A program made the position numbers and the translations under genes. DNA of 64,000 nucleotides from a phage, in the sequence record NC_135732.1; one strand, given 5' to 3'. Below the pieces are notes generated by a model that did no database searches, was not told where the DNA came from, and saw nothing but the letters and a program-made list of their open reading frames with translations. Positions 13-44,659 of this stretch are shown here, piece after piece (the first letter of the stretch is position 1; the number at the start of each line of letters is the position of its first letter).

Positions 13-113
13 GGTGCTAGGTGATGGAATCGAACCACCTATGTATTCAACGACTACCTCGTCTATTTTCAGGATTAAAAATCCTCGCCCTTGCCAAAGG
101 GCTTACCTAGCTC
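13..113 (-). tRNA. tRNA-like element, atypical (about 99 nt); possible degenerate or insert-containing tRNA
   Basis: Minus-strand read: 7-bp acceptor stem GCTAGGT/ACCTAGC, D-arm GCCC-loop-GGGC, canonical T-arm GGTGG-TTCGATT-CCATC. No clean anticodon arm; best guess loop UUUUUAA (anticodon UUU) followed by a ~30-nt extra region. Confidence 0.35.
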
Positions 114-209
114 AGTATGTTGACCATGTTGCTAGTCGGCGATGACGACTGTAACATTTGATAATCCGGTTCTGCTTCCGGCTTTCGCTTAATTACAAGG
201 TCAACAATA

Positions 210-300
210 TGGCTGAGGGTAATGGAATCGAACCATCATCAAGTCATCCTCAACGGGACGGTTTTCAAGACCGCTTGAGCACCATTGCTCCCTACCCTCA
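210..300 (-). tRNA. tRNA-Ser (anticodon UGA), long variable arm, CCA encoded
   Basis: Hand-folded on minus strand: acceptor TGAGGGT/ACCCTCA, anticodon loop CTTGAAA, T-arm GATGG-TTCGATT-CCATT, 3' CCA at 210-212. Confidence 0.75.
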
Positions 301-414
301 TTTATAAACAATACTGATAATGACACTGATTTTCGAGCAGTTAGTGACTAGTATAAACGACGATAAATATCAATGCCATTATCTGTATGATTTATGCATT
401 TAAAACTATAAATT

Positions 415-501
415 TGGTGGGGAGTGGTGGAGTCGAACCACCCGAGTCGCAATGACAATAGATTTACAGTCTACACCGCTACCCCTACGGGATAACTCCC
501 C
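415..501 (-). tRNA. tRNA-Tyr (anticodon GUA), long variable arm, CCA encoded
   Basis: Acceptor GGGGAGT/ACTCCCC, anticodon stem GTAGA/TCTAT with loop CTGTAAA, T-arm GGTGG-TTCGACT-CCACC. Confidence 0.75.
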
Positions 502-505
502 AATT

Positions 506-580
506 TGGCACCCCGTACTGGACTCGAACCAGTGTCAACGGCTTAGAAGGCCGCTGCTTTATCCACTAAGCTAACAGGGC
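506..580 (-). tRNA. tRNA-Arg (anticodon UCU), CCA encoded
   Basis: Acceptor GCCCTGT/ACGGGGT (with G:U pairs), D-stem GCTT/AAGC, anticodon stem GCGGC/GCCGT with loop CTTCTAA, T-arm ACTGG-TTCGAGT-CCAGT. Confidence 0.75.
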
Positions 581-2959: not shown

Positions 2960-3042
2960 GTGTCCGTATCACGGACAGTTAGTGTCCGTATTACGGGCAG
3001 ATGTGTCCGCGTGACGGACAGTAGTGTCCGTATCACGGACAG
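2960..3042. repeat. Four tandem copies of a 19-bp palindrome GTGTCCGTATCACGGACAG (period 21-22 bp)
   Basis: Copies at 2960, 2982, 3003 and 3024; each is an inverted repeat GTCCGT..ACGGAC. Lies in an AT-rich intergenic gap between two minus-strand genes. Confidence 0.8.
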
Positions 3043-3116
3043 TTAATAGTATCCGTTCCATGGCGAACATAAAACATACGAATCCTTATAGTACAGATAT
3101 TTAAGTTTTTACTGGT

Positions 3117-3467
3117 CTAACCAGTTGTTGACATCCGAATAACTTCTTCTGGTGGCAAAACTTTGGAAAATGTGCATCTTTTACCTCTCCCTTGTGTGGA
3201 TGTTTCAACCACTCCTGCACATTCTAAAGTTTTAACGCACGCTGCTGCTTTTGTTTTCTTTATCCCAACATCTGCTGCAATTTTCCTTGTGCTTGGTGTG
3301 AAGCGTGAATTTCCTCCAAGCTTATACCAGTTGTGCAGGTAGCAGTATACGATCTTGTCATACAAGTCAAGAACAACAACCTCCCCAGTTGTGTCATTCA
3401 AAACTTTTGACATAGATAGTATTTCAAGGGGGACTTTAAGATATAGCAGCTTATCCCCATCTTTCAT
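3117..3467 (-). CDS. putative helix-turn-helix DNA-binding protein
   Basis: 116-aa ORF; segment TRKIAADVGIKKTKAAACVKTLECAGVVE resembles an HTH motif. Assignment by eye only. Confidence 0.45.
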   Translation of the reverse strand: MKDGDKLLYLKVPLEILSMSKVLNDTTGEVVVLDLYDKIVYCYLHNWYKLGGNSRFTPSTRKIAADVGIKKTKAAACVKTLECAGVVETSTQGRGKRCTFSKVLPPEEVIRMSTTG

Positions 3468-3514
3468 ATCTCCTGATTCTCCTTGTGTGGCAATTTTCTT
3501 TAAAATAGCAGGGA

Positions 3515-4069
3515 TTACTCCCTGCTGTCAATATCAAAACTCATTGCAATACGGTATGCCTCTTCTAATGGTAAGAGTCTCCCCCACACATCCCAACCGA
3601 CATCAAGCTGCCTGCCAAACAACTGTTGTGTGGTTCCGTGAGCATGACCGAACAGTTGGACTGATCCGTGAGGCTTTCTGTTCCACTTTGCAAACTGGTA
3701 ATGGCTCATACAGATCAAATTCTTGTTGTGGCGAAGCTCGTAATAATCTACAACCTCATGACCGAACTCTTTCATAATTCTGACAGTCGTCCTTGTGTCA
3801 TGGTTGCCACGAACAAGAATAATATGTCCGTTCAACATATTTAGAATATCTGGAAGTAAGTTGTTGATATTCTTATCATTAGTGCACGCAATATCTCCCA
3901 AGTGGAACACAGTGTCTGCAGGTGACACAACAGAGTTCCACTCGGCGATGATTCCCGCATTCATACTGTCAAGATTGTGATCATACTGAGATCTGTGTTT
4001 TTGACATGAATCAAACTCCATGACCCGCTGGTGGAGAAAGTGTGTGTCGCTTGTTACAAAGTATTTCAT
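3515..4069 (-). CDS. calcineurin-like metallophosphoesterase; candidate RNA-end phosphatase (Pnkp-type)
   Basis: Motifs SDTHF, GDIxxxND, GNHD and GHxH. Start set to MKYF at 4069; the track start 4174 overlaps the upstream gene. Confidence 0.7.
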   Translation of the reverse strand: MKYFVTSDTHFLHQRVMEFDSCQKHRSQYDHNLDSMNAGIIAEWNSVVSPADTVFHLGDIACTNDKNINNLLPDILNMLNGHIILVRGNHDTRTTVRIMKEFGHEVVDYYELRHNKNLICMSHYQFAKWNRKPHGSVQLFGHAHGTTQQLFGRQLDVGWDVWGRLLPLEEAYRIAMSFDIDSRE

Positions 4070-4076
4070 ACATTCC

Positions 4077-4487
4077 TCATTTAAGTTTAATGCAGTTTTT
4101 AAGCTGGCGTTCCATACGATCCACAACCTTGTCTGGAACATCATGAATGCTTTTATTACCGTGGCGGTTTTCAACCACGATCACGGTATAACTATACCCA
4201 TGACTGATTGCCATGTCAACATATTCCTGCACATGTTTTTCTTTTGTAAACGTATTACTTACCACGATACGGTCGTATCCCATACGCATCATATCTTCTA
4301 CGTTATCTTTGCACCATTTTGCTGCGAGTGTTACTTTACTTGCATCCCAGTTGTAATTGCCGTCATCGTCATACCAGAACATGTCGTTCTCAAAATGTGG
4401 ATACAGACCCTCTAAAGATAGCGCATTTGCCAGTGTTGATTTGCCAGACCCTGGTAGACCACGCACGATATATAGCATTTTAGACAT
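4077..4487 (-). CDS. P-loop polynucleotide kinase-like protein
   Basis: Walker A YIVRGLPGSGKSTLA resembles the T4 Pnk kinase domain. Start at MSKM (4487) with GGAGGG RBS. Confidence 0.65.
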   Translation of the reverse strand: MSKMLYIVRGLPGSGKSTLANALSLEGLYPHFENDMFWYDDDGNYNWDASKVTLAAKWCKDNVEDMMRMGYDRIVVSNTFTKEKHVQEYVDMAISHGYSYTVIVVENRHGNKSIHDVPDKVVDRMERQLKNCIKLK

Positions 4488-4608
4488 AGTGACCCTCCGT
4501 TTTAATTTCAACGGTAGTATACCTAACTGTTTTGTTAATTTCAAGTGTTGACACTAGGTTATTTGTGTGGCAGGATAGACTGACAAAATGACAAATGAGG
4601 AACGTATA

Positions 4609-5523
4609 ATGAAGTATTTTAATGCAGACGACCTGGTTGACAAAGGTCTTGTAACCAGTAGGTATTACCCAGATCTCGGGTTAAAGATCTATAAATATGC
4701 TAGAAAAGTATTTTACAACAATTTATGGCATTTGTCCCCTCGTTTACTGGAGTGCCGAGGCATTGTTGTAGGTAATGAAGGAAATGTTGTGGCATGGCCC
4801 TTCACAAAAGTGTTTAACTTGGGAGAAAACTCCACCAACCTGCCTGACAATAAGCTTGTGACTGCGGTAGAGAAAAAGAACGGATTCCTTGGTGTGGTAT
4901 CATCTCATAAAGGTGACCTATTGTTCTCAACAACCGGGTCTCTTGATTCTCCATATTGTAACCTTGCAAAGGAAACCATCCAAGAGCAATGTGGTAATTT
5001 AGATCTTATCAAGAAGGTTATGGGCAATGAAAACATGACATTCATGTTTGAAATTTGTCACCCTTCAGATCCGCATATTGTTCAAGAAGACCATGGCGCA
5101 TATTTGATAGGTTGCAGATATAATGATTCTGGAATAATGCTACCAGAAGCAGCTTTAGATGGGATTGCCAAATACCTTGGTGCAAAACGTCCTCACACTG
5201 TGCGTGAAATCCCGTTCAGCTATGCAAAAGAATTAGCCGCAGAAACAAGGGGCGAAGGGTATATGATCCGTAAGCCTTACTACCCTTATGACCTGCAGCT
5301 GAAGATCAAGTCTCCATACTACCTGGCACGGAAGGCCGTAATGAGGGGTAAAGCTTGGAAGATTTGGGATGATGATATCTTTAAACGTGTTGACGAAGAG
5401 TTTTACGGCATGGTAAACTTCATTCGTAACAATTACACAGAAGATGTGTGGAACTGCCTCCTGGAGCAGGAACGCCGTGAGATACTTGATTACTATTTCC
5501 ACAACGAGAACTATATGCAATGA
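4609..5523 (+). CDS. RNA ligase, Rnl1 family (T4 RnlA-like)
   Basis: Recalled similarity to T4 Rnl1: LECRGIVV, KVFNLGEN, and nucleotidyltransferase motif I KKNGF (Lys ~96). Start may be 4588 or 4609 (GAGGAA RBS). Confidence 0.8.
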   Translation: MKYFNADDLVDKGLVTSRYYPDLGLKIYKYARKVFYNNLWHLSPRLLECRGIVVGNEGNVVAWPFTKVFNLGENSTNLPDNKLVTAVEKKNGFLGVVSSHKGDLLFSTTGSLDSPYCNLAKETIQEQCGNLDLIKKVMGNENMTFMFEICHPSDPHIVQEDHGAYLIGCRYNDSGIMLPEAALDGIAKYLGAKRPHTVREIPFSYAKELAAETRGEGYMIRKPYYPYDLQLKIKSPYYLARKAVMRGKAWKIWDDDIFKRVDEEFYGMVNFIRNNYTEDVWNCLLEQERREILDYYFHNENYMQ

Positions 5524-5870
5524 AGAAGTTGATTGTGTGGCTGGATGACTTGAGAGATCCGTCAAATTATGGGCTCCCAGACGCTATTTGGCTAAAGAAT
5601 TCCTCCGAGTTTATAGATTTTATTAACGATAGGGGAAAGCTCTACAGACGCGTTTCTGAGTGGCACATGGACAACGACCTTGGAGAGTTGTTCGAAGGGT
5701 ACGATTGCCTATCTATGTTGGAGGAAAAATTTGTATTTGGTAAGCCCCCTGTAGTTGACAACGTGAAGATTTTCGTGCATACTTCTAACCCATCAGCGGC
5801 TCGTAAATTCATGCTTGCAGCTGACTCGTTTAAAAAGTTTGGAATAGAGATTAAACAAAACATCTACTGA
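5520..5870 (+). CDS. hypothetical protein, 116 aa, co-operonic with RNA ligase and Sir2-like gene
   Basis: ATGA start/stop overlap with the ligase gene. No recognisable family; short N-terminal strand IVWLDD. Confidence 0.5.
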   Translation: MKKLIVWLDDLRDPSNYGLPDAIWLKNSSEFIDFINDRGKLYRRVSEWHMDNDLGELFEGYDCLSMLEEKFVFGKPPVVDNVKIFVHTSNPSAARKFMLAADSFKKFGIEIKQNIY

Positions 5871-5878
5871 GGACACTT

Positions 5879-6640
5879 ATGCGACGACTGATTATTATCT
5901 CCGGTGCTGGTTTGAGCGCTGAATCTGGTATTCCCACTTTCCGATCTGGTAGCACTGCAATGTGGGAGAATTTCAGCATCGATGAGGTGTGCAACATCCA
6001 CACCTTTGCCAAGAACTACTACAAGGTGCATGACTTTTACAATGCACGTCGTGTAGCTCTAGGCGGTGTTGAGCCTAACCTTGCACATCTTCGGATCGCT
6101 GAGTGGTATTCCCGCTGGTCTGGTCGTGTGATCAACCTTACCACCAATGTAGATGATTTGCTGGAGCGTGCTGGTGTAAAACATGAAGATATTTTACATG
6201 TTCACGGGTATTTGCCAGAAATAGTCTATGAGGACGATGAAGGAAGTGACGTCATTAAGGACATTGGATACTCTGAGGTAGATGCAGGAAAGTATACCTG
6301 GGTTAAACCTAATGTGGTGTTCTTCGGAGAAGTAGCTCCGAAGTATACAGACATGTATGACCTGTTGACTTCTCTTACAAGCAATGATATGGTTATCCTT
6401 GTAGGGTGTTCCAACACAGTTATCAATTTTAACTGGGAGCTATTCCCTGCCTGCAATAAGGGCACCAAACTGCTGATCGTTAACAAATACGACTCACAGC
6501 ATCTAGAGGAGAATGGCATTTCACGTAGTGATATTTACCAGTACGAGGATCGCGGCATCCCGGTTTGGTTTAACGGGGCGGTTGACGCTTTCTCTGATAA
6601 AACATTCATTGAGACCGTAGAAAACTTTATGGAACTTTAA
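5879..6640 (+). CDS. Sir2-family (sirtuin-like) NAD-dependent protein lacking the zinc ribbon
   Basis: Sirtuin motifs GAGLSAESGIPTFR, TTNVDDL, HVHG, VVFFGE and VGCS..VINF..LLIVN. No CxxC...CxxC module after HG. Confidence 0.8.
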   Translation: MRRLIIISGAGLSAESGIPTFRSGSTAMWENFSIDEVCNIHTFAKNYYKVHDFYNARRVALGGVEPNLAHLRIAEWYSRWSGRVINLTTNVDDLLERAGVKHEDILHVHGYLPEIVYEDDEGSDVIKDIGYSEVDAGKYTWVKPNVVFFGEVAPKYTDMYDLLTSLTSNDMVILVGCSNTVINFNWELFPACNKGTKLLIVNKYDSQHLEENGISRSDIYQYEDRGIPVWFNGAVDAFSDKTFIETVENFMEL

Positions 6641-6653
6641 AAGGAGACCTTTA

Positions 6654-7367
6654 ATGCTGAATACTAAACTGATCGACAACCTGGAAAAACTGTCTCAGCC
6701 TGAAAACTATCTTTGGTCTGCCAACTGGGTGGAAAACTGGAACCGTGTGGCAGCTAAAGTGAAAAAATCATACACACCATTCGAATTACAGCTTAGCTTC
6801 ATTGAGGAAGAGTTCAATGAGGTTTTGGAAGAGCTGGAGAAAGGTGATGGTGGAGATCACCTGCTAAAAGAGGCCTGCGATCTTCACGTTGTCACAAGTT
6901 ATGCCGCTTATCTTGTTAATGATAATCACGAAAAGTGGTCAAACCTGTTTGATAATCCACGAGGTCTTAAGTTCAAGATCGGTGAGTTCTATGATACACT
7001 GATCGCTGCGAAAAACACATCCAAGCAAAGAGCGTCAGCTTACCGCTTAGCGGAGTTGTCAACAGCTTTGCTGTTCCAGCTTCGCGGCGATGTGTGTGGG
7101 ATGATGCGGAAGGTTCTCAAATCCAATGACAGCAAGTTTGCACGGATCAACCATCTACGATATTCTCACGGTGCCAGTGCAGATATGTCTACTGAATTGC
7201 TCATAGAGTTAGAGATTGAAGATCTTGAGCGTCGTTTTGGTGGTCGCTACGAAGGTTTCGTTGCTAAAGAGGAGTTCTACAACGGTAATAAAGTTATTAT
7301 ATTCCTTGACAGTAAAGGTAAGATTATGAAGCCTTCGAGCTTCAAGGATGTAACAGAGTATATTTAA
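6654..7367 (+). CDS. hypothetical protein; possible MazG-like NTP pyrophosphohydrolase
   Basis: 237-aa ORF; segment FIEEEFNEVLEELEKGDGGDHLLKEACD resembles a MazG/all-alpha NTP-PPase EExxE helix. Weak. Confidence 0.4.
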   Translation: MLNTKLIDNLEKLSQPENYLWSANWVENWNRVAAKVKKSYTPFELQLSFIEEEFNEVLEELEKGDGGDHLLKEACDLHVVTSYAAYLVNDNHEKWSNLFDNPRGLKFKIGEFYDTLIAAKNTSKQRASAYRLAELSTALLFQLRGDVCGMMRKVLKSNDSKFARINHLRYSHGASADMSTELLIELEIEDLERRFGGRYEGFVAKEEFYNGNKVIIFLDSKGKIMKPSSFKDVTEYI

Positions 7368-7372
7368 CAACA

Positions 7373-7398
7373 TAGCCGGGATTACCCGGCTTTACTTA
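7373..7398 (+). terminator. rho-independent terminator
   Basis: Hairpin AGCCGGG-attac-CCGGCT followed by a T-rich run. Confidence 0.6.
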
Positions 7399-7429
7399 TT
7401 ATGGAAAGTATGCAGTGAGGTAGTTAGTT

Positions 7430-7738
7430 ATGTACAAGCATTCCAGAGATCTTGAAAAAGATGCTGTGTTTGGCGACCAGATGAAGGAGCTGATCAAACT
7501 TATAGGTAGAATGGAAGATAAGTTTGACACTAAAATCTACATCGATAGCAAGATCTTCAACCACAAAATATGGACAAATGTGTGTGTTGGGCTACATGGT
7601 GATAAAGATATTGTAAATTTGGTTGTAATAAAGTTCATAGTGTGGCAGAATAGGACTATACGTTATTCCGATCCACACTTACTTGTTTATCCTATAAAAG
7701 ACCTACTACAGAAGGAGGACTGCAATGCCGTTATTTAA
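7430..7738 (+). CDS. hypothetical protein
   Basis: 102-aa ORF. Confidence 0.45.
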   Translation: MYKHSRDLEKDAVFGDQMKELIKLIGRMEDKFDTKIYIDSKIFNHKIWTNVCVGLHGDKDIVNLVVIKFIVWQNRTIRYSDPHLLVYPIKDLLQKEDCNAVI

Positions 7739-7994
7739 TCTTGCTAAACCTGTAGAAGCACACCAGTTTGATGGAAGCTCTTCATCAGTATCTGATCTGC
7801 AACGGTGGATTGATACAGGTGTGTTTACATCGTCACCTGTTCGGACCAGAGATATTCGTCGCATGTGTGAGCTTGTTGAGCCGTTTGGCAACTTGGTTTT
7901 GTACCAGGGAGATTGGTTAGTTGACTTTATGGGAGACTGGTTGGTAATGAGTAAAGAAGAGATGTTTAAAATTTTTAAGGAAGAGGCCGAGTAA
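7725..7994 (+). CDS. hypothetical protein
   Basis: 89-aa ORF, overlapping stop/start with neighbours. Confidence 0.45.
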   Translation: MPLFNLAKPVEAHQFDGSSSSVSDLQRWIDTGVFTSSPVRTRDIRRMCELVEPFGNLVLYQGDWLVDFMGDWLVMSKEEMFKIFKEEAE

Positions 7995-9277
7995 TGCATC
8001 AAATCAAAACAACACTGTACGCACTGAACAAAGATGGCAGCTACCAACAGTGGAAAGTATTCACTGATGGCGAAAAGGTTATCGTAGAGTTTGGCAAGCT
8101 TGACGGTAAATTGCAGTACAAAGAGACGGTATGTACACCTAAAAACGTAGGTCGTGCCAACGAGACTACAGCTGAGCAACAGGCCGAGCTTGAGGCTATC
8201 AGCAAGTGGGAAAAACAAGTCCGTCTGGGGTATGTTGAAAACATGGAAGATTGCGAGCAGGGTGTTGATCTTTTACCTATGCTGGTGCATGACTACCTGA
8301 AGCGTGGCAAGGCACTTAAATTACCTTGCTGGATCTTGCGTAAGTTAGATGGCCTTCGTCTGCTTGTTGTTTTCCAAAATGGTGAGCCTAAATTTATTTC
8401 CCGTGGTAATAAGTCCTACCCTATTCAAGGAAAGCTTTTAGAGCAACTTCGTTCTTTCCATTCTACCACTGGGATTAAACAACTTGATGGGGAACTATAC
8501 ATTCATGGTCTTCCTTTGCAGAAAATAGTGTCTCTTGCTAAACGGTGGCGCACACAGGAAGAGATTCAGGCCGAGATCGATAAAGACTATGAGGCAGATA
8601 AAAAACGCCGTCATGCAGCAATTAAGGCAGGCTTATCAACATACAAAAACTTCAACAAGGTAGATATTCCTGTCGATGTTGAGCCTGTTCGTGATGATTT
8701 GCGTTACGGTGGATACTGTAGCTACGATCTGGAGTATCACATTTTTGATATTCCTAGCGACAAGGTGTGGTGGGATCCAGAAACAGAGTCTGGACGCTGC
8801 AAGGATCTTATGGATGCAGAGGATACCGTTACCACTCTGATGCTTGATCATATCAAGGTTGTTGACGCAGAGCTTGCGTACACAGTTGATCATTGCGAAG
8901 AATCTGTTGGTATATTCATGTCCGAAGGATATGAAGGTACTATCATGCGTAATTTCTGCGGTAAATATGAGTATGGTCAGCGAACATCTGAAGCATTGAA
9001 ATGGAAAAAGTTCAACGACGCAGAGGTGAAAGTTATTGACGTTGAGAAAGATAAGAATGATGAAGGTGTTCTTATCTGTGTTGACAAGGAAGGTGTTGTT
9101 GTTAAAATGAAGATGAAAGGCACGCACGAGGAGCGTAGCTATGACAGAATGCAGGAAATGATCGGCAAGTTTGTCACCTTCAAATATCAAGCAAGGACAG
9201 AAGACAACAACTACCAATTCCCTGTCGGTATCTGCGTCCGAAATGTTAACCCAGACACTTGGGAGGTGCTTGAATGA
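7994..9277 (+). CDS. ATP-dependent DNA ligase
   Basis: Ligase motif I RKLDGLR, motif III DGELYIHG, motif IV EGTIMR, motif V KWKK. Confidence 0.8.
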   Translation: MHQIKTTLYALNKDGSYQQWKVFTDGEKVIVEFGKLDGKLQYKETVCTPKNVGRANETTAEQQAELEAISKWEKQVRLGYVENMEDCEQGVDLLPMLVHDYLKRGKALKLPCWILRKLDGLRLLVVFQNGEPKFISRGNKSYPIQGKLLEQLRSFHSTTGIKQLDGELYIHGLPLQKIVSLAKRWRTQEEIQAEIDKDYEADKKRRHAAIKAGLSTYKNFNKVDIPVDVEPVRDDLRYGGYCSYDLEYHIFDIPSDKVWWDPETESGRCKDLMDAEDTVTTLMLDHIKVVDAELAYTVDHCEESVGIFMSEGYEGTIMRNFCGKYEYGQRTSEALKWKKFNDAEVKVIDVEKDKNDEGVLICVDKEGVVVKMKMKGTHEERSYDRMQEMIGKFVTFKYQARTEDNNYQFPVGICVRNVNPDTWEVLE

Positions 9278-9400
9278 TGTAGGAAGGTTCAGTAGGTAAC
9301 GGTAGCCAATTGAATGATGGTTTTCAATCGGCACCTACATAACCACACTGTGTAGTGTTGTTGATCGTGTTAGTTATGAGTAAACTGGAGAGTATGAAAA

Positions 9401-9871
9401 ATGAAACTTGATAAAAATGTTCAACGAAAAGCTTTCTTGGACATGATCGCATATTCGGAAGGCACAGATAATGGTAGGCAACCCACTAAGGATCGGGGAT
9501 ACGATGTCATAGTTGGTGGCAAGCTGTTTAGCGATTACAGCAAGCATCCAGGTGTGTACGTTAAGCTAAATGCTAAACTTACCTCCTCCGCTGCTGGTCG
9601 TTACCAGGTTTTGGAGAAGTTTGCTAAACACTACATGGAACAGTTAGGATTGCCAGATTTTGGCCCCGCCAGTCAGGACAAGATTGCGTTGCAACTGATC
9701 CGTGAGTGCAAGGCTCTCGCCGACATTGACGAAGGGCGTATCCACGAGGCTATCCATAAATGCCGTTCCCGCTGGGCTTCGTTACCTGGTGCTGGATATG
9801 GTCAGCATGAACAGAAGATCGAGAAGTTGATCGAGGTGTTTAAAAAGGCAGGCGGTGTTGTCCTTGATTGA
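9401..9871 (+). CDS. endolysin, lambda R-type lytic transglycosylase
   Basis: Near-colinear with recalled lambda R: RKAFLDMIAYSEGTDNGRQ, GYDVIVGG, AGRYQ, WASLPGAGYGQ. Confidence 0.9.
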   Translation: MKLDKNVQRKAFLDMIAYSEGTDNGRQPTKDRGYDVIVGGKLFSDYSKHPGVYVKLNAKLTSSAAGRYQVLEKFAKHYMEQLGLPDFGPASQDKIALQLIRECKALADIDEGRIHEAIHKCRSRWASLPGAGYGQHEQKIEKLIEVFKKAGGVVLD

Positions 9872-41685: not shown

Positions 41686-41897
41686 TCAACACACATGCAT
41701 CTGAAGAGACATCCGAAGGAGTGACGACCATATGTAACCTGGCTGAGCCAGTGAAAGAGGAAAACTTCGATTCTGAAGATTCTCCATCTTCGCTCCAGGT
41801 AGACCCTGAGGCTGATGACCTGACGTGGGAGGACATCGTAGACATCTGGTTCTCTATTATGCCTGAGCACGAAGAGTTCAGAGGTGGTAGACTATGA
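41682..41897 (+). CDS. hypothetical acidic protein
   Basis: 71-aa ORF. Confidence 0.4.
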   Translation: MINTHASEETSEGVTTICNLAEPVKEENFDSEDSPSSLQVDPEADDLTWEDIVDIWFSIMPEHEEFRGGRL

Positions 41898-42017
41898 AGC
41901 ACCGAGCCCACACAGGTTCCTCATGCTAAAGCATGACCTGAAGAGGCAAACGTGCATAATTCCTGTGCATTGAAACGTATAAACCCTGTTCACACTCTCA
42001 TTCACAGAGGAGATTTC

Positions 42018-42233
42018 ATGAAGATAGAAATATTTGGTGGGGCTGACAACACTCGTGGCCTGATTTACCTTGAATTCGATGAATCATACCTGCCAGAGGT
42101 GTTAAATATAGACTCTGTTGCTGAGGCTTTGGGAGTAAACCCTAAAGAACTCCACTCTTGTGCTGAGATCGATGGTTGGGAAGAGACCATGAACATTGAT
42201 TTCAGTGAAGTAGAGGATGAACCGCTGGACTGA
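42018..42233 (+). CDS. small acidic protein (starts MKIEIFGG)
   Basis: Start ATG 42018 after GAGGAGA RBS. Confidence 0.45.
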   Translation: MKIEIFGGADNTRGLIYLEFDESYLPEVLNIDSVAEALGVNPKELHSCAEIDGWEETMNIDFSEVEDEPLD

Positions 42234-43699
42234 CACACAATTAGCTGCCCGGCTAAAGTGCTGGAAGCGCACCTATAACACATATTTCAACTAAATTTCC
42301 CACCACCACAATCACTTACCTACCACACGTGACTGTTTGCTTGTTTAGTGAGCAGTCATGCCTTGACATTCTTGCCTATCCTGATAAAATTAAGTTCTTC
42401 TCTTTTCTTTTACCGAGTAATTCGGGTTTTCTGTTCTCTTCGGTTTGAAGGGGTATGGAGATACACCTGAGTGAACAGGGTGAACAACCGAACCATTAGC
42501 TATGGCATTAGCATGGCGAAGCGGACGGGTGACGAAAGAGGGGCCGGAGGACACCAGTCACTGCCATATGATATATGGGTGATAACCTGAAGAGTCTGAA
42601 TAAGTGTTTAAGTACCAGTCAGAGGAAAAGGTGAATGGTAGCCGAAGGGGGAGGGGGGGTTTCTTGTATCTTTAATTTGTATATTATGTATACACTTGTA
42701 AACCAATTTCATATGAATCTGTTTACCACACAAAGTGGATTGAGACAAATATTACCTATTAAACTTGAATTATTTATAGAAAATACCACAACACACCTTA
42801 AGTCTTTGATTTTACACATAAATCTTACAGATATTCAACCTCCATATTTAACATACTTGTAACATATCCTATACCACACCTGCCTGATCAATTCCCCCAA
42901 CTACATCCTCTATATTTTCCCTGTCTGTACTACCCCATCCCCGCCGGGAGTCCCGTCATATCTGGCTTTCCAGCAAATATCACACCCACAAATATCATTG
43001 CCTGAAGAGGGTTTCATCCTCTAATACCTGCCTTACCTGAAGAGCGCTTCATACACCACGTAAATTTTTTAATTGACCTGCAATTTTCCCGTCATGACCC
43101 CCTGCCCCGCCGGAGAGGTTGGCTTTTCCCACACAGACCTGAAGAGTCAGCCAGAAATATCTGAACAGGCCCAATTCTACCACGATTTTGACCTGACCTA
43201 CAGGAGTGCTGCCAGGCGGACGAAATGGGAATACTTCTCATTCTTATAATAATTCTCAAATATCGAGGCAGTGAAGCAAATTAATAGGTGAGGCCGTTCA
43301 CATAGTGGCACAACATTTGCAATCTATTTTGTGTGGGGGAATGAGAATACCTATCATTGTGAGAACTGTTATCATTACGGGCAATTTAACATAATACCCA
43401 TTATGCGCACCACTGGCGATACATACAGGGATTGATAACATGAGTTACTGTTTACGCATATAACAATTATATTTATTACTATTTGTGTGGGATATAGTTA
43501 GCAGCCGATAGATTAGATATTGACCTGCGGACTTCTGACCGTCTAGACGTCTAAACGCCCACACAGCAAGAGTTATACATACATCGCTGAATGTAAACAG
43601 GGCCGCAAAAATGCTACCATACCAGTTTGTAAATTTTTCATGCAGCACTTGACAAAGAGGAGAAAAACTTGTCTGACATAATGTGACCTAACTGACACA

Positions 43700-43800
43700 A
43701 CATGACACTTTTACACACCTATTAGTTTACACACTGGATTGTTTACATTCCTGATTGTTCACATGCTAACCATTTACATGATTGACTGTTTACACACCGA
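43700..43800. repeat. Cluster of short direct repeats (iteron-like): TGTTTACA(C) and CATGACA
   Basis: Six or more copies of GTTTACA/TTTACAC within ~100 bp; further copies at ~44216 and ~44259. Confidence 0.7.
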
Positions 43801-43807
43801 TAATCAG

Positions 43808-44060
43808 CCATGCCATTCGTTTGCATGACAATAATTATACATGACAATAATCGCACTGATTATAATTAGCATGACATAATATAAAAGCAGGGCAACTATT
43901 AGCAGATCTATAGTTGCCTTGCTTGTTATGTCATGATTAACTAAATACAAGGCAACTATGATCTGATTAATAGTTTGCAGACAAACTATCACGGGGGTGA
44001 TGGTTACTGCTTTTATATTATGTCGCGACTCCGTCGCGCCATGCCATTCGTTTGCATAGT
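43808..44060. repeat. Composite element: 20-bp direct repeats flanking a 16-bp perfect inverted repeat and nested palindromes
   Basis: GCCATGCCATTCGTTTGCAT at 43808 and 44040; CATAATATAAAAGCAG (43875-43890) with its exact reverse complement at 44007-44022; palindrome GGCAACTAT...ATAGTTGCC at ~43891-43919. Confidence 0.75.
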
Positions 44061-44659
44061 TGCCTTATTGTTACAGATAAAATAATTGTATTGTTAATTA
44101 TTTCTTATCTTTCTATTAGTCATCTAATGATTTCAGTTAATATAGTAACGTACAGTAAACATTAGACGACTAAAGATTTCTCTGCTTATGGTAACCTAAC
44201 GTGACAATTCCAGACTGTTTACGAAAAATGTTGACACCTGGGCCGATTTATGTTATGCAGTTTACACGAATAATTATTTTATGCAGGTATTGACTATTCC
44301 GTTATTCTACGGTTGGAATAAATGCTTAGCAGGCTATAGAATGGCGAGCGTACGTAAATTCTGAGATCTGGCGGCTATAGTTATACTCGATTTTTCACGT
44401 AGAAAACGCTTTTGTAGTTATGTAAGTGTATGACTTATAAGAATTTTTAGTTGTTGACAAGCTATTGAAGATATGCATCAGGTTAAATTTTGTGCAAATG
44501 CTGCATTACGTGCAATTTTGGAAGGAAAAACGTGTAAAAATGGCCCTGCTACCACACAATGAAAAATTATGCAATAGTTATTTTATATGTATGTTTGTAC
44601 AGTGGGGTTAATTGCTGGCTTGTTGATTATTCCATTTGCCAGGCGGGGCCATTTGTGGT

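Follow-up and report, generated by a model that had tools for sequence, protein, structure and literature searches.

A putative RNA break-repair locus in an rV5-type phage that combines a kinase, metallophosphoesterase and Rnl1-family ligase with a zinc-ligand-less sirtuin

The phage DNA of sequence record NC_135732.1 (64,000 nucleotides; hereafter the window, numbered from its first letter) carries near one end a cluster of genes for predicted RNA-healing and RNA-sealing enzymes together with a gene for a Sir2-family protein (sirtuin). Bases 3000-9500 of the window share 99.9% identity with Escherichia phage ime (Vequintavirus, rV5-type myovirus), and at least 80% of this stretch is covered by 114 phage records. 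An earlier reading of the letters alone (the original prediction) had described a divergently oriented RNA repair cassette accompanied by a Sir2 protein. We mapped the locus by combining the listing of open reading frames (ORFs) with Pfam and PHROGs matches and the GenBank annotation of phage ime, which yielded the following features:

3515-4069, minus strand: binuclear metallophosphoesterase, 184 amino acids (aa); start ATG 4069, per the phage ime annotation
4077-4487, minus strand: polynucleotide kinase (PNK)-like P-loop kinase, 136 aa; start most likely ATG 4487, with GGAGGG at 4493-4498 before it
4488-4608: divergent intergenic region with promoter-like sites back-to-back (consensus evidence only)
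4609-5523, plus strand: Rnl1-family ATP-dependent RNA ligase, 304 aa (311 aa counted from ATG 4588)
5520-5870, plus strand: cREC (cyclic-phosphate-processing receiver-like) domain protein, 116 aa; Pfam PF20274
5879-6640, plus strand: sirtuin (Sir2 family) without zinc-binding cysteines, 253 aa; Pfam SIR2, phrog_2162
6654-7367, plus strand: MazG/PRA-PH-like putative nucleotide pyrophosphohydrolase, 237 aa; last operon gene, phrog_671
7374-7391, plus strand: intrinsic-terminator-like hairpin that closes the plus-strand operon, AGCCGGGATTACCCGGCT

The five ORFs named in the original prediction were all found where it had placed them and with the domains it had given (ORF listing, Pfam and PHROGs); its limits were those of the longest ORFs, and hence several starts have moved. 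The kinase start at TTG 4544 is replaced by ATG 4487, which has the ribosome-binding site GGAGGG, and the ligase, formerly counted as 311 aa, more likely begins at ATG 4609, behind GAGGA at 4597-4601 and where its homologues and the GenBank entry begin. Shine-Dalgarno sequences thus precede both the kinase and the ligase genes. On the plus strand the ligase, cREC, sirtuin and MazG-like genes form a single operon, in which the final 4 bases of the ligase gene also open the cREC gene, and the sirtuin gene follows cREC 9 bases later. The operon had been thought to end at 6640; this was too short, the fourth gene at 6654-7367 and the hairpin behind it having been overlooked. Six of the 7 base pairs in the hairpin are G-C and a T-rich tail comes after it; it was detected on both strands. 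Two names in the GenBank record of phage ime (MN850576) are misplaced by transfer: ime_14, the kinase, is called "putative phosphoesterase", and ime_18, the MazG-like protein, "putative Sir2-like protein".

The minus-strand kinase and phosphoesterase genes do stand opposite the plus-strand ligase gene, as had been described, whereas the region between them, given as 4545-4587, now spans 4488-4608. A promoter scan detected a minus-strand sigma70-like site (TTGAAA-17-TATACT, 4544-4516) with 10 of 12 consensus matches. Only three bases away, on the plus strand, lies TTGACA (4548-4553) with a weak TG-extended -10 element, read by eye and uncalled by the scan. Because the 19 promoter-like sites found in the region are not clearly above the 14.8 ± 3.6 of shuffled sequences, the divergent promoters are proposed at the level of consensus matches.

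The ligase matched Pfam RNA_lig_T4_1 (PF09511; 1.1e-14, 55.3 bits against a cut-off of 28.3) and phrog_562 (2.8e-66). Single-sequence searches of the PDB with the ligase, the kinase or the MazG-like protein gave nothing useful, and family profiles were needed for the first two; the ligase profile (A1, 32 homologues) had T4 Rnl1 as its sole PDB match (E = 5e-14), over the nucleotidyltransferase domain. Residues K96-x-N98-G99, E155, E223-G224 and K239/K241, which align with the KEDG, FE, EGY and KIK motifs of T4 Rnl1, are invariant among the 32 homologues, and so, further upstream, are R57, K74 and F76, which are specific to Rnl1. An AlphaFold2 (AF2) model of the protein, with a predicted local distance difference test score (pLDDT) of 90.8, was compared with the PDB by Foldseek; Rnl3, the ligase domain of Trl1 (Trl1-LIG) and T4 Rnl1 were at the top (E = 2e-12 to 1e-9, template-modeling (TM) score ∼0.6), and DNA ligases came far lower, with TM 0.3-0.4 and no E-value better than 1e-5. 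The protein had been called an RNA ligase, with placement among the DNA ligases named as the outcome that would overturn the call; both the profile match to T4 Rnl1 and the Foldseek ranking put RNA ligases far ahead. Against NCBIfam TIGR02308, the T4 RnlA equivalog, it scored 38.7 bits (cut-off, 242.25), and we assign it to the broad Rnl1 family and not to the RnlA equivalogs. None of the cassette proteins reached a curated NCBIfam cut-off, so none of them qualifies as an equivalog of T4 RnlA, CobB, PdeM or YfcE.

Most GenBank names, and the label of phrog_562, read "RNA ligase and tail fiber protein attachment catalyst", which raises the thought that the protein is chiefly a tail-fiber attachment catalyst (the second function of T4 gp63) and that its neighbors are unrelated to it. 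We consider this highly improbable, as the label was carried over from T4 gp63, all of the nucleotidyltransferase residues are invariant, the gene lies among early nucleic-acid enzymes and not among structural genes, and the ligase is fused or tightly linked to the kinase and phosphoesterase in the loci surveyed below.

The kinase belongs to a very large family of stand-alone proteins of ∼130 aa and matched Pfam AAA_33 (1e-10), phrog_2071 (3e-58) and phrog_505, "polynucleotide kinase" (5e-10). Its family profile (A2) covers Pnkp1, T4 Pnk, PSTK and the kinase of Clostridium thermocellum Pnkp (CthPnkp) over most of its length, whereas the match to nucleoside monophosphate (NMP) kinases is confined to the P-loop. 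The AF2 model (pLDDT 84) superimposed best on CthPnk and T4 Pnk (TM 0.73-0.77), and the query-based scores (TMq) were 0.70-0.77 for CthPnk, T4 Pnk, Pnkp1 and PSTK as compared to 0.3-0.6 for adenylate, UMP-CMP, shikimate and gluconate kinases. The GLPGSGKST P-loop, D35 (equivalent to the general base D35 of T4 Pnk) and S77-N78-T79 (equivalent to S-D-T, T86, of T4) are invariant or nearly so. A PADLOC scan of the kinase returned weak P-loop matches only. The earlier assignment as PNK-like thus holds against the deoxynucleoside monophosphate and adenylate kinases that had been named as the alternative, with both profile and fold nearest to polynucleotide kinases, and the protein is a candidate polynucleotide 5'-OH kinase.

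The phosphoesterase scored above threshold for Pfam Metallophos_2 and Metallophos and matched phrog_547 (1.5e-51). All of its motifs, namely DxH (D8, H10), GD (G58, D59), GNHD (88-91), H123 and GHxH (141-144), are invariant in 15 homologues. When all PDB sequences were searched with phmmer (E up to 1), the closest solved relative was the uncharacterized Aquifex protein aq_1665 (1xm7; 1.8e-10); nothing else was below E = 0.1, and three marginal matches had E = 0.13-0.58. A Pakpunavirus homologue is annotated as CDD MPP_AQ1575. By sequence, the phosphoesterase is thus of the AQ1575/aq_1665-type clade and not of the lambda-phosphatase/CthPnkp clade. The description "Pnkp-style" given to it earlier is apt as a functional analogy at the superfamily level, given the complete binuclear motifs, and fails as a statement of clade membership, the PDB match being to aq_1665 only. 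The protein is a candidate healer of 2',3'-cyclic-phosphate or 3'-phosphate ends.

Linkage among these genes was assessed in two surveys. The ligase-centered survey took 80 viral loci with this ligase subfamily, a partner radius of 10 kb, and 41 ligase clusters formed at 70% identity; the sirtuin-centered survey comprised the window and the GenBank record nearly identical to it, four GenBank loci of other phages, and 54 loci from IMG/VR. Partners within 10 kb of the ligase were as follows:

Kinase: 73 of 80 loci, 36 of 41 clusters
Phosphoesterase: 62 of 80 loci, 35 of 41 clusters
DNA ligase: 44 of 80 loci, 15 of 41 clusters
Sirtuin: 11 of 80 loci, 4 of 41 clusters
cREC: 11 of 80 loci, 4 of 41 clusters
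MazG-like: 13 of 80 loci, 4 of 41 clusters

At a radius of 1.5 kb, the kinase (fusions included) still accompanied the ligase in 68 of the 80 loci and the phosphoesterase in 57. Eleven metagenomic loci encode kinase and ligase in a single polypeptide of 421-432 aa with the kinase N-terminal, confirmed by Pfam as AAA_33 plus RNA_lig_T4_1 (L094, L095, L099, L102, L103, L105, L107 and L111-L114; e.g., L112:9527-10825); the L114 fusion ORF, which begins near the contig end, is shorter (338 aa). No phosphoesterase was detected near the fusion loci. In four of the fusion contigs (L099, L107, L112 and L113) a phage tmRNA gene follows the fusion gene at a distance of ∼5-7 kb. On the basis of the partner counts and the fusions, phosphoesterase, ligase and kinase are the widespread, robust unit, and the sirtuin module is a lineage-restricted addition. 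The functional linkage of these three enzymes that had been proposed is borne out by their co-occurrence in most ligase lineages and by the kinase-ligase fusions.

The counts also include a DNA ligase, which in the window lies beyond the operon:

7994-9277, plus strand: ATP-dependent DNA ligase, conserved neighbor; Pfam DNA_ligase_A_M and OB_2, phrog_114 (3e-83)

Its presence within 10 kb in 44 of the 80 loci, and its position directly after Sir2 in phages of the PVP-SE1 type, would suit a general nucleic-acid end-repair locus in which the kinase and phosphoesterase prepare 5'-OH and 3'-phosphate DNA ends for sealing by the DNA ligase. T4 Pnk uses DNA as well as RNA, and the phosphoesterase weakly resembles, below threshold, PdeM, a "ligase-associated DNA damage response endonuclease" (20.5 bits where 150 are required; E = 2.6e-4). 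This explanation nevertheless appears improbable to us: the fusion partner of the kinase is the RNA ligase and not a DNA ligase, the kinase and phosphoesterase occur in 36 and 35 of the 41 ligase clusters compared to 15 for the DNA ligase, and the cREC and HAD_SAK_2 contexts described below are those of RNA repair according to the Pfam definitions. The DNA ligase is probably outside the RNA pathway.

The 116-aa protein, previously listed as unknown, matched Pfam cREC_REC (PF20274; 8.3e-15, 55.7 bits against a cut-off of 27), and its residues D9, D10, D51 and D53 (receiver-like) along with S89, N90 and K96 are invariant in 9 homologues. The cREC domain was defined by the Aravind group as a predicted opener of cyclic phosphates and is without biochemical characterization (PMC9503650, PMC7824862). 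The MazG-like assignment of the fourth operon protein is based on its match to phrog_671 "nucleotide pyrophosphohydrolase" (5.7e-22), sub-threshold matches to Pfam PRA-PH (0.025-0.089), the invariant acidic residues E52, E53, E56 and D76 (EExxE...D), and its published placement in the MazG superfamily (Iyer et al. 2022, PMC9503650).

The sirtuin matched Pfam SIR2 (PF02146; 5.5e-27, 95.3 bits against a cut-off of 24) and phrog_2162 (3e-109), with CobB and SIRT5 as the closest solved proteins (∼5e-21); it remained below every NCBIfam CobB cut-off (122 versus 243 bits). Five clade members show no variation in the GAGxS motif (G9-A10-G11, S16) or in N90, D93 and the catalytic H109. In contrast, the segment from H109 to K143, where Escherichia coli CobB has its zinc ligands, is free of cysteine, as it is in the homologues from PVP-SE1, T5-like, phi92-like and Vibrio phages, and a clade-specific motif, D128-x-G130-Y131, fills the zinc-ribbon segment. 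The protein had been described as zinc-ribbon-less; "zinc-ligand-less" is accurate, as no zinc-site cysteine is present in the window protein or in the four other phage members. The possibility of a phage-captured, defense-style NADase was rejected because PADLOC gave no defense-type SIR2 match. None of the six cassette proteins matched KptA/Tpt1 in Pfam, PHROGs or NCBIfam, and the sirtuin fold differs from the ADP-ribosyltransferase (ART) fold of KptA/Tpt1, so that any likeness to those enzymes is proposed as functional analogy only.

According to the sirtuin-centered survey, ∼15 Vequintavirinae-type loci hold phosphoesterase, ligase, cREC, kinase, sirtuin, DNA ligase and MazG together. All cassette genes are co-oriented in PVP-SE1-type phages, and the kinase and phosphoesterase are inverted only in the rV5-type; because the orientation differs in this way, the gene set has been kept through rearrangement. 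In Erwinia-type Vequintavirinae relatives (L055, 9090-9575), an unrelated 161-aa ORF with no Pfam match fills the cREC slot between kinase and sirtuin and may be a non-homologous replacement of cREC. Beyond these phages, the same sirtuin clade adjoins HAD_SAK_2, a "Swiss Army Knife RNA repair" phosphatase of the haloacid dehalogenase (HAD) type, in 29 T5-like loci. Downstream of the T5-type sirtuin, HAD_SAK_2 is followed by two paralogous DUF7415 proteins, and a Klebsiella T5-like lineage has the DUF7415 pair without the HAD domain (T5-like loci L003, 8165-9507, and L032, 10969-11762). The sirtuin adjoins NADAR in a RaK2-like jumbo phage, and no RNA-repair domains were recognizable among its neighbors in phi92-like and Vibrio phages.

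Genes of nicotinamide adenine dinucleotide (NAD+) and ADP-ribose metabolism also accompany the ligase. In Pakpunavirus PAK_P4 (L140, 3472-9833), phosphoribosyl pyrophosphate (PRPP) synthetase, NAMPT (NadV) and a Poa1p-like Macro protein come directly after the ligase-kinase pair, and in IMG/VR contig L073 (6371-11273) PRPP synthetase, NAMPT and Macro are directly upstream of phosphoesterase-ligase-kinase; both of these Pakpunavirus-type cassettes are without sirtuin or cREC. In PVP-SE1, the genes for NAMPT and PRPP synthetase precede the cassette at a distance of a few kb. Elsewhere in the window, no NAD+ salvage genes are annotated (via the phage ime annotation). The clustering of NAD+ supply and ADP-ribose-phosphate processing with the ligase in independent, sirtuin-less lineages fits an NAD+-dependent step but is not proof of one.

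The cassette lies 2.9 kb from a set of tRNA genes:

13-580, minus strand: phage tRNA array with Arg-UCU, Tyr-GUA, Ser-UGA and one atypical 99-nt tRNA (ARAGORN, Rfam)

In phage ime this array runs on past the start of the window. Among ligase-centered loci, 32 of 58 had tRNA genes within 10 kb, a raw count with no baseline. Suppressor-type tRNAs (anticodons CUA or UUA) occur within 10 kb of the cassette on contigs L120, L121, L127, L130 and L139, a hint of stop-codon-recoding phages. The atypical gene (13-111, minus strand) was left unassigned by ARAGORN ("anticodon atcc"), scored 35.5 bits against Rfam tRNA, and can be folded as a cloverleaf with an extra arm of ∼30 nt. Speculatively, an alternative 7-nt loop, UUUUUAA, picked out by eye would give the anticodon UUU (Lys). 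tRNA-Lys with the anticodon UUU is the classic target of anticodon nucleases.

The best explanation of the locus, to which we assign a probability of about 0.65, is a two-layer system of the rV5-type phage for repairing breaks in RNA, most likely tRNA. We infer the enzymatic activities, the RNA substrate and, with the greatest reserve, the role of the sirtuin from the domains, motifs, operon and linkage described above. In the first layer, the PNK-like kinase would phosphorylate 5'-OH ends, the metallophosphoesterase would open the cyclic phosphate and/or strip the cyclic or terminal phosphate, and the Rnl1-family ligase would seal 3'-OH to 5'-phosphate via lysyl-AMP at K96. That this core by itself heals 5'-OH and 2',3'-cyclic-phosphate ends and reseals RNA, most plausibly tRNAs cut by host anticodon nucleases, is the part of the interpretation in which we have good confidence. 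In the second layer, specific to Vequintavirinae-type phages and with an NAD+-dependent branch of healing as its likeliest role, cREC would open cyclic phosphates, the sirtuin would move ADP-ribose from NAD+ onto the 2'-phosphate and so remove it in the manner of KptA/Tpt1, and cREC with MazG would degrade the ADP-ribose cyclic-phosphate by-product. The addition of such an NAD+-dependent 2'-phosphate-removal branch by cREC, sirtuin and MazG (Iyer et al. 2022) is a tentative proposal, possible and not probable on our estimate. We are a shade more doubtful still of its specific form, by analogy, in which the zinc-less sirtuin would be an RNA-directed, non-homologous replacement of KptA/Tpt1 at a tRNA break or splice junction and cREC and the MazG-like protein would clear ADP-ribose 1''-2''-cyclic phosphate.

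Both the gene set and this hypothesis have already been published as a computational prediction. Iyer, Burroughs, Anantharaman and Aravind (2022; Viruses 14:1977, PMC9503650, section 3.7.3) described a type 2 sirtuin-centered phage RNA-repair neighborhood with Escherichia phage V5 and Proteus phage Mydo as prototypes, and predicted that its sirtuin removes RNA 2'-phosphates like KptA/Tpt1. The window has the same set within 3515-7367 (sirtuin, T4-like tRNA ligase, cREC, nucleotide kinase, MazG-superfamily pyrophosphatase and calcineurin-like phosphoesterase), in the same phage lineage and with the same predicted sirtuin role, and there is no essential difference. The Sir2 association is thus not new. 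Where Iyer et al. call the phosphoesterase an "occasional" partner, our ligase-centered survey found it near-constant, with Sir2, cREC and MazG lineage-restricted. What the present analysis adds is that the phosphoesterase-containing triad is the common core, with kinase-ligase fusions, and that the coupling of sirtuin and ligase is phyletically loose. The earlier statement of that coupling was right in placing it outside the T4 pathway and implied too close a bond, as most phages with the ligase are without the sirtuin and most with the sirtuin are without the ligase.

Several observations weigh against the two-layer interpretation. Some concern the core. The C-terminal all-helical tRNA-specificity domain of T4 Rnl1 has ∼120 residues (T4 ∼255-374); in the AF2 model of the window ligase the C-terminal helices comprise ∼65 residues (243-306), about half of that domain, and the profile alignment stops at T4 residue 249. 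The arginine of T4 Pnk that holds the 3'-phosphate of the acceptor (R38) corresponds to W38 in the window kinase and to F, W or H in homologues, so that the window kinase must recognize its acceptor in another way than T4 Pnk does; R108, in an invariant E-N-R-H motif, may take the place of R38. The DNA ligase is a conserved neighbor too, and some of the healing enzymes might serve DNA. Our literature search, which covered phage sirtuins, cREC and RNA repair in Vequintavirinae, found two comparative papers of the Aravind group and no experimental study.

The other such observations concern the second layer, and they are also what favors the main competing explanation, namely that the triad alone repairs RNA while Sir2, cREC and MazG form a separate NAD+/ADP-ribose module. 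This module might act in counter-defense, against immune signals made from NAD or toxins that ADP-ribosylate, or might modify host proteins by deacylation or ADP-ribosylation, and would sit in the ligase operon only through joint early expression and a gene order passed on by descent. The triad often occurs on its own: it is found without Sir2, cREC or MazG in ∼90% of ligase clusters and so needs no sirtuin, which is present in just 4 of 41. Among GenBank phages, the sirtuin clade occurs in 1009 records, many of them T5-like, and the ligase subfamily in 758, many of them from phages of Pseudomonas, Streptomyces and Vibrio, and the two sets coincide only in part; T5-like loci have the sirtuin and no such ligase within 10 kb, and in a phi92-like genome the sirtuin (L038) is unlinked, ∼30 kb from a cREC-phosphoesterase-ligase-kinase-MazG cluster (L063). 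The nearest characterized relatives of the sirtuin, CobB and SIRT5, are protein deacylases, and the Vequintavirinae-type loci are all related, so that their shared order is partly one inherited event. Several findings speak for a common function instead. In T5-like phages, an independent architecture, the sirtuin clade stands beside an RNA-repair-type HAD phosphatase; cREC remains in the ligase cluster even where the sirtuin is absent from it; the ligase, cREC and sirtuin genes are packed into one terminated operon with the overlap and 9-base spacing noted above; and the canonical zinc ligands of protein deacylases are lost throughout the clade. On balance we judge the separate-module explanation unlikely, without being far-fetched.

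The two-layer interpretation can be set beside four known systems. T4 Pnk (kinase plus HAD 3'-phosphatase) and Rnl1 counter the PrrC anticodon nuclease, and T4 is, to our knowledge, the one phage whose tRNA repair has been worked out biochemically. The window locus resembles this system in its Rnl1-family ligase with all catalytic motifs, its PNK-like kinase fold and the phage-encoded heal-and-seal scheme. It differs in that the kinase is a stand-alone protein of 136 aa with no equivalent of R38, healing would be by a metallophosphoesterase instead of the HAD 3'-phosphatase carried by T4 Pnk, the C-terminal domain of the ligase is about half as long, and there are the additional cREC, Sir2 and MazG genes. 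The claim that the locus supplies T4 Pnk/Rnl1-like repair activities accordingly keeps its basis in the sequence- and model-based identities of ligase, kinase and phosphoesterase, and was incomplete as an interpretation because it left out the roles of cREC and the MazG-like protein.

In Clostridium thermocellum Pnkp, a bacterial Pnkp that acts with Hen1, kinase, binuclear metallophosphoesterase and ligase are parts of one polypeptide (PMC2190708, PMC3675462). The same three chemistries are predicted here, including a binuclear metallophosphoesterase, and no solved structure matches the kinase model better than CthPnk. Unlike bacterial Pnkp, the phage enzymes are separate proteins with an Rnl1-type ligase and an AQ1575/aq_1665-type phosphoesterase, and no Hen1 methyltransferase was recognized among the neighbors examined. 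Fungal and plant tRNA splicing uses Trl1 (ligase, kinase and 2H cyclic phosphodiesterase) followed by Tpt1/KptA and Poa1 (PMC10946426). Trl1 ligase domains rank near the top in the structural comparison of the phage ligase, kinase-ligase fusions exist in phage relatives, and the proposed sequence of steps (opening of the cyclic phosphate, ligation, and NAD+-dependent removal of the 2'-phosphate) is similar; in the Pakpunavirus cassette, a Poa1p-like Macro protein and NAD+ salvage genes are at the flank. In contrast to the Trl1 system, no 2H domain or Tpt1/KptA (ART fold) was recognized, cREC and the sirtuin being the proposed non-homologous substitutes, and the sequence profile of the ligase matches T4 Rnl1 and not Trl1. 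As for CobB and SIRT5, which are class III sirtuins and lysine deacylases, the phage protein shares the NAD+ motif, N90, D93 and H109; it differs in lacking the zinc cysteines, in having D-x-G-Y in their stead, and in being phage-carried with RNA-repair or ADP-ribose-processing neighbors.

Cleavage of tRNA is a common bacterial weapon against phages (PrrC, RloC, PARIS, some retrons and colicin-type toxins). Judged from its sequences, the cassette would represent a second solution to tRNA repair, widespread in viral sequence data, in which a stand-alone kinase is combined with a metallophosphoesterase and a short ligase of the Rnl1 type. Should the published prediction be correct, sirtuin chemistry would extend to RNA and the presence of NAD+ salvage and ADP-ribose-processing genes around phage RNA ligases would be explained. 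An RNA-directed sirtuin would be the first with an RNA substrate, cREC would acquire its first assigned activity, and rV5-type phages would run a Trl1/Tpt1-like, 2'-phosphate-dependent ligation beside the direct phosphoesterase route. Because rV5-like phages (several of them in the BASEL collection) are easily handled and of interest for therapy, the idea is directly testable.

Two further features of the window lie outside the cassette. Four tandem repeats of 21-22 bp (GTGTCCGTATCACGGACAGTTA), each with an internal palindrome, are located at 2960-3045, just past the 3' end of a minus-strand helix-turn-helix (HTH) gene (3117-3467; DUF6945/HTH_36, PHROG "replication initiation protein"). They carry a plain repeat_region annotation in the phage ime record, and to us they look like an iteron-type binding array. 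Finally, ∼2.5 kb at ∼41800-44300 have no annotated gene in phage ime and are rich in inverted and direct repeats, including five GACCTGAAGAG-like 14-mers; gene orientation and GC skew switch there, and the segment may be an origin or a regulatory region.

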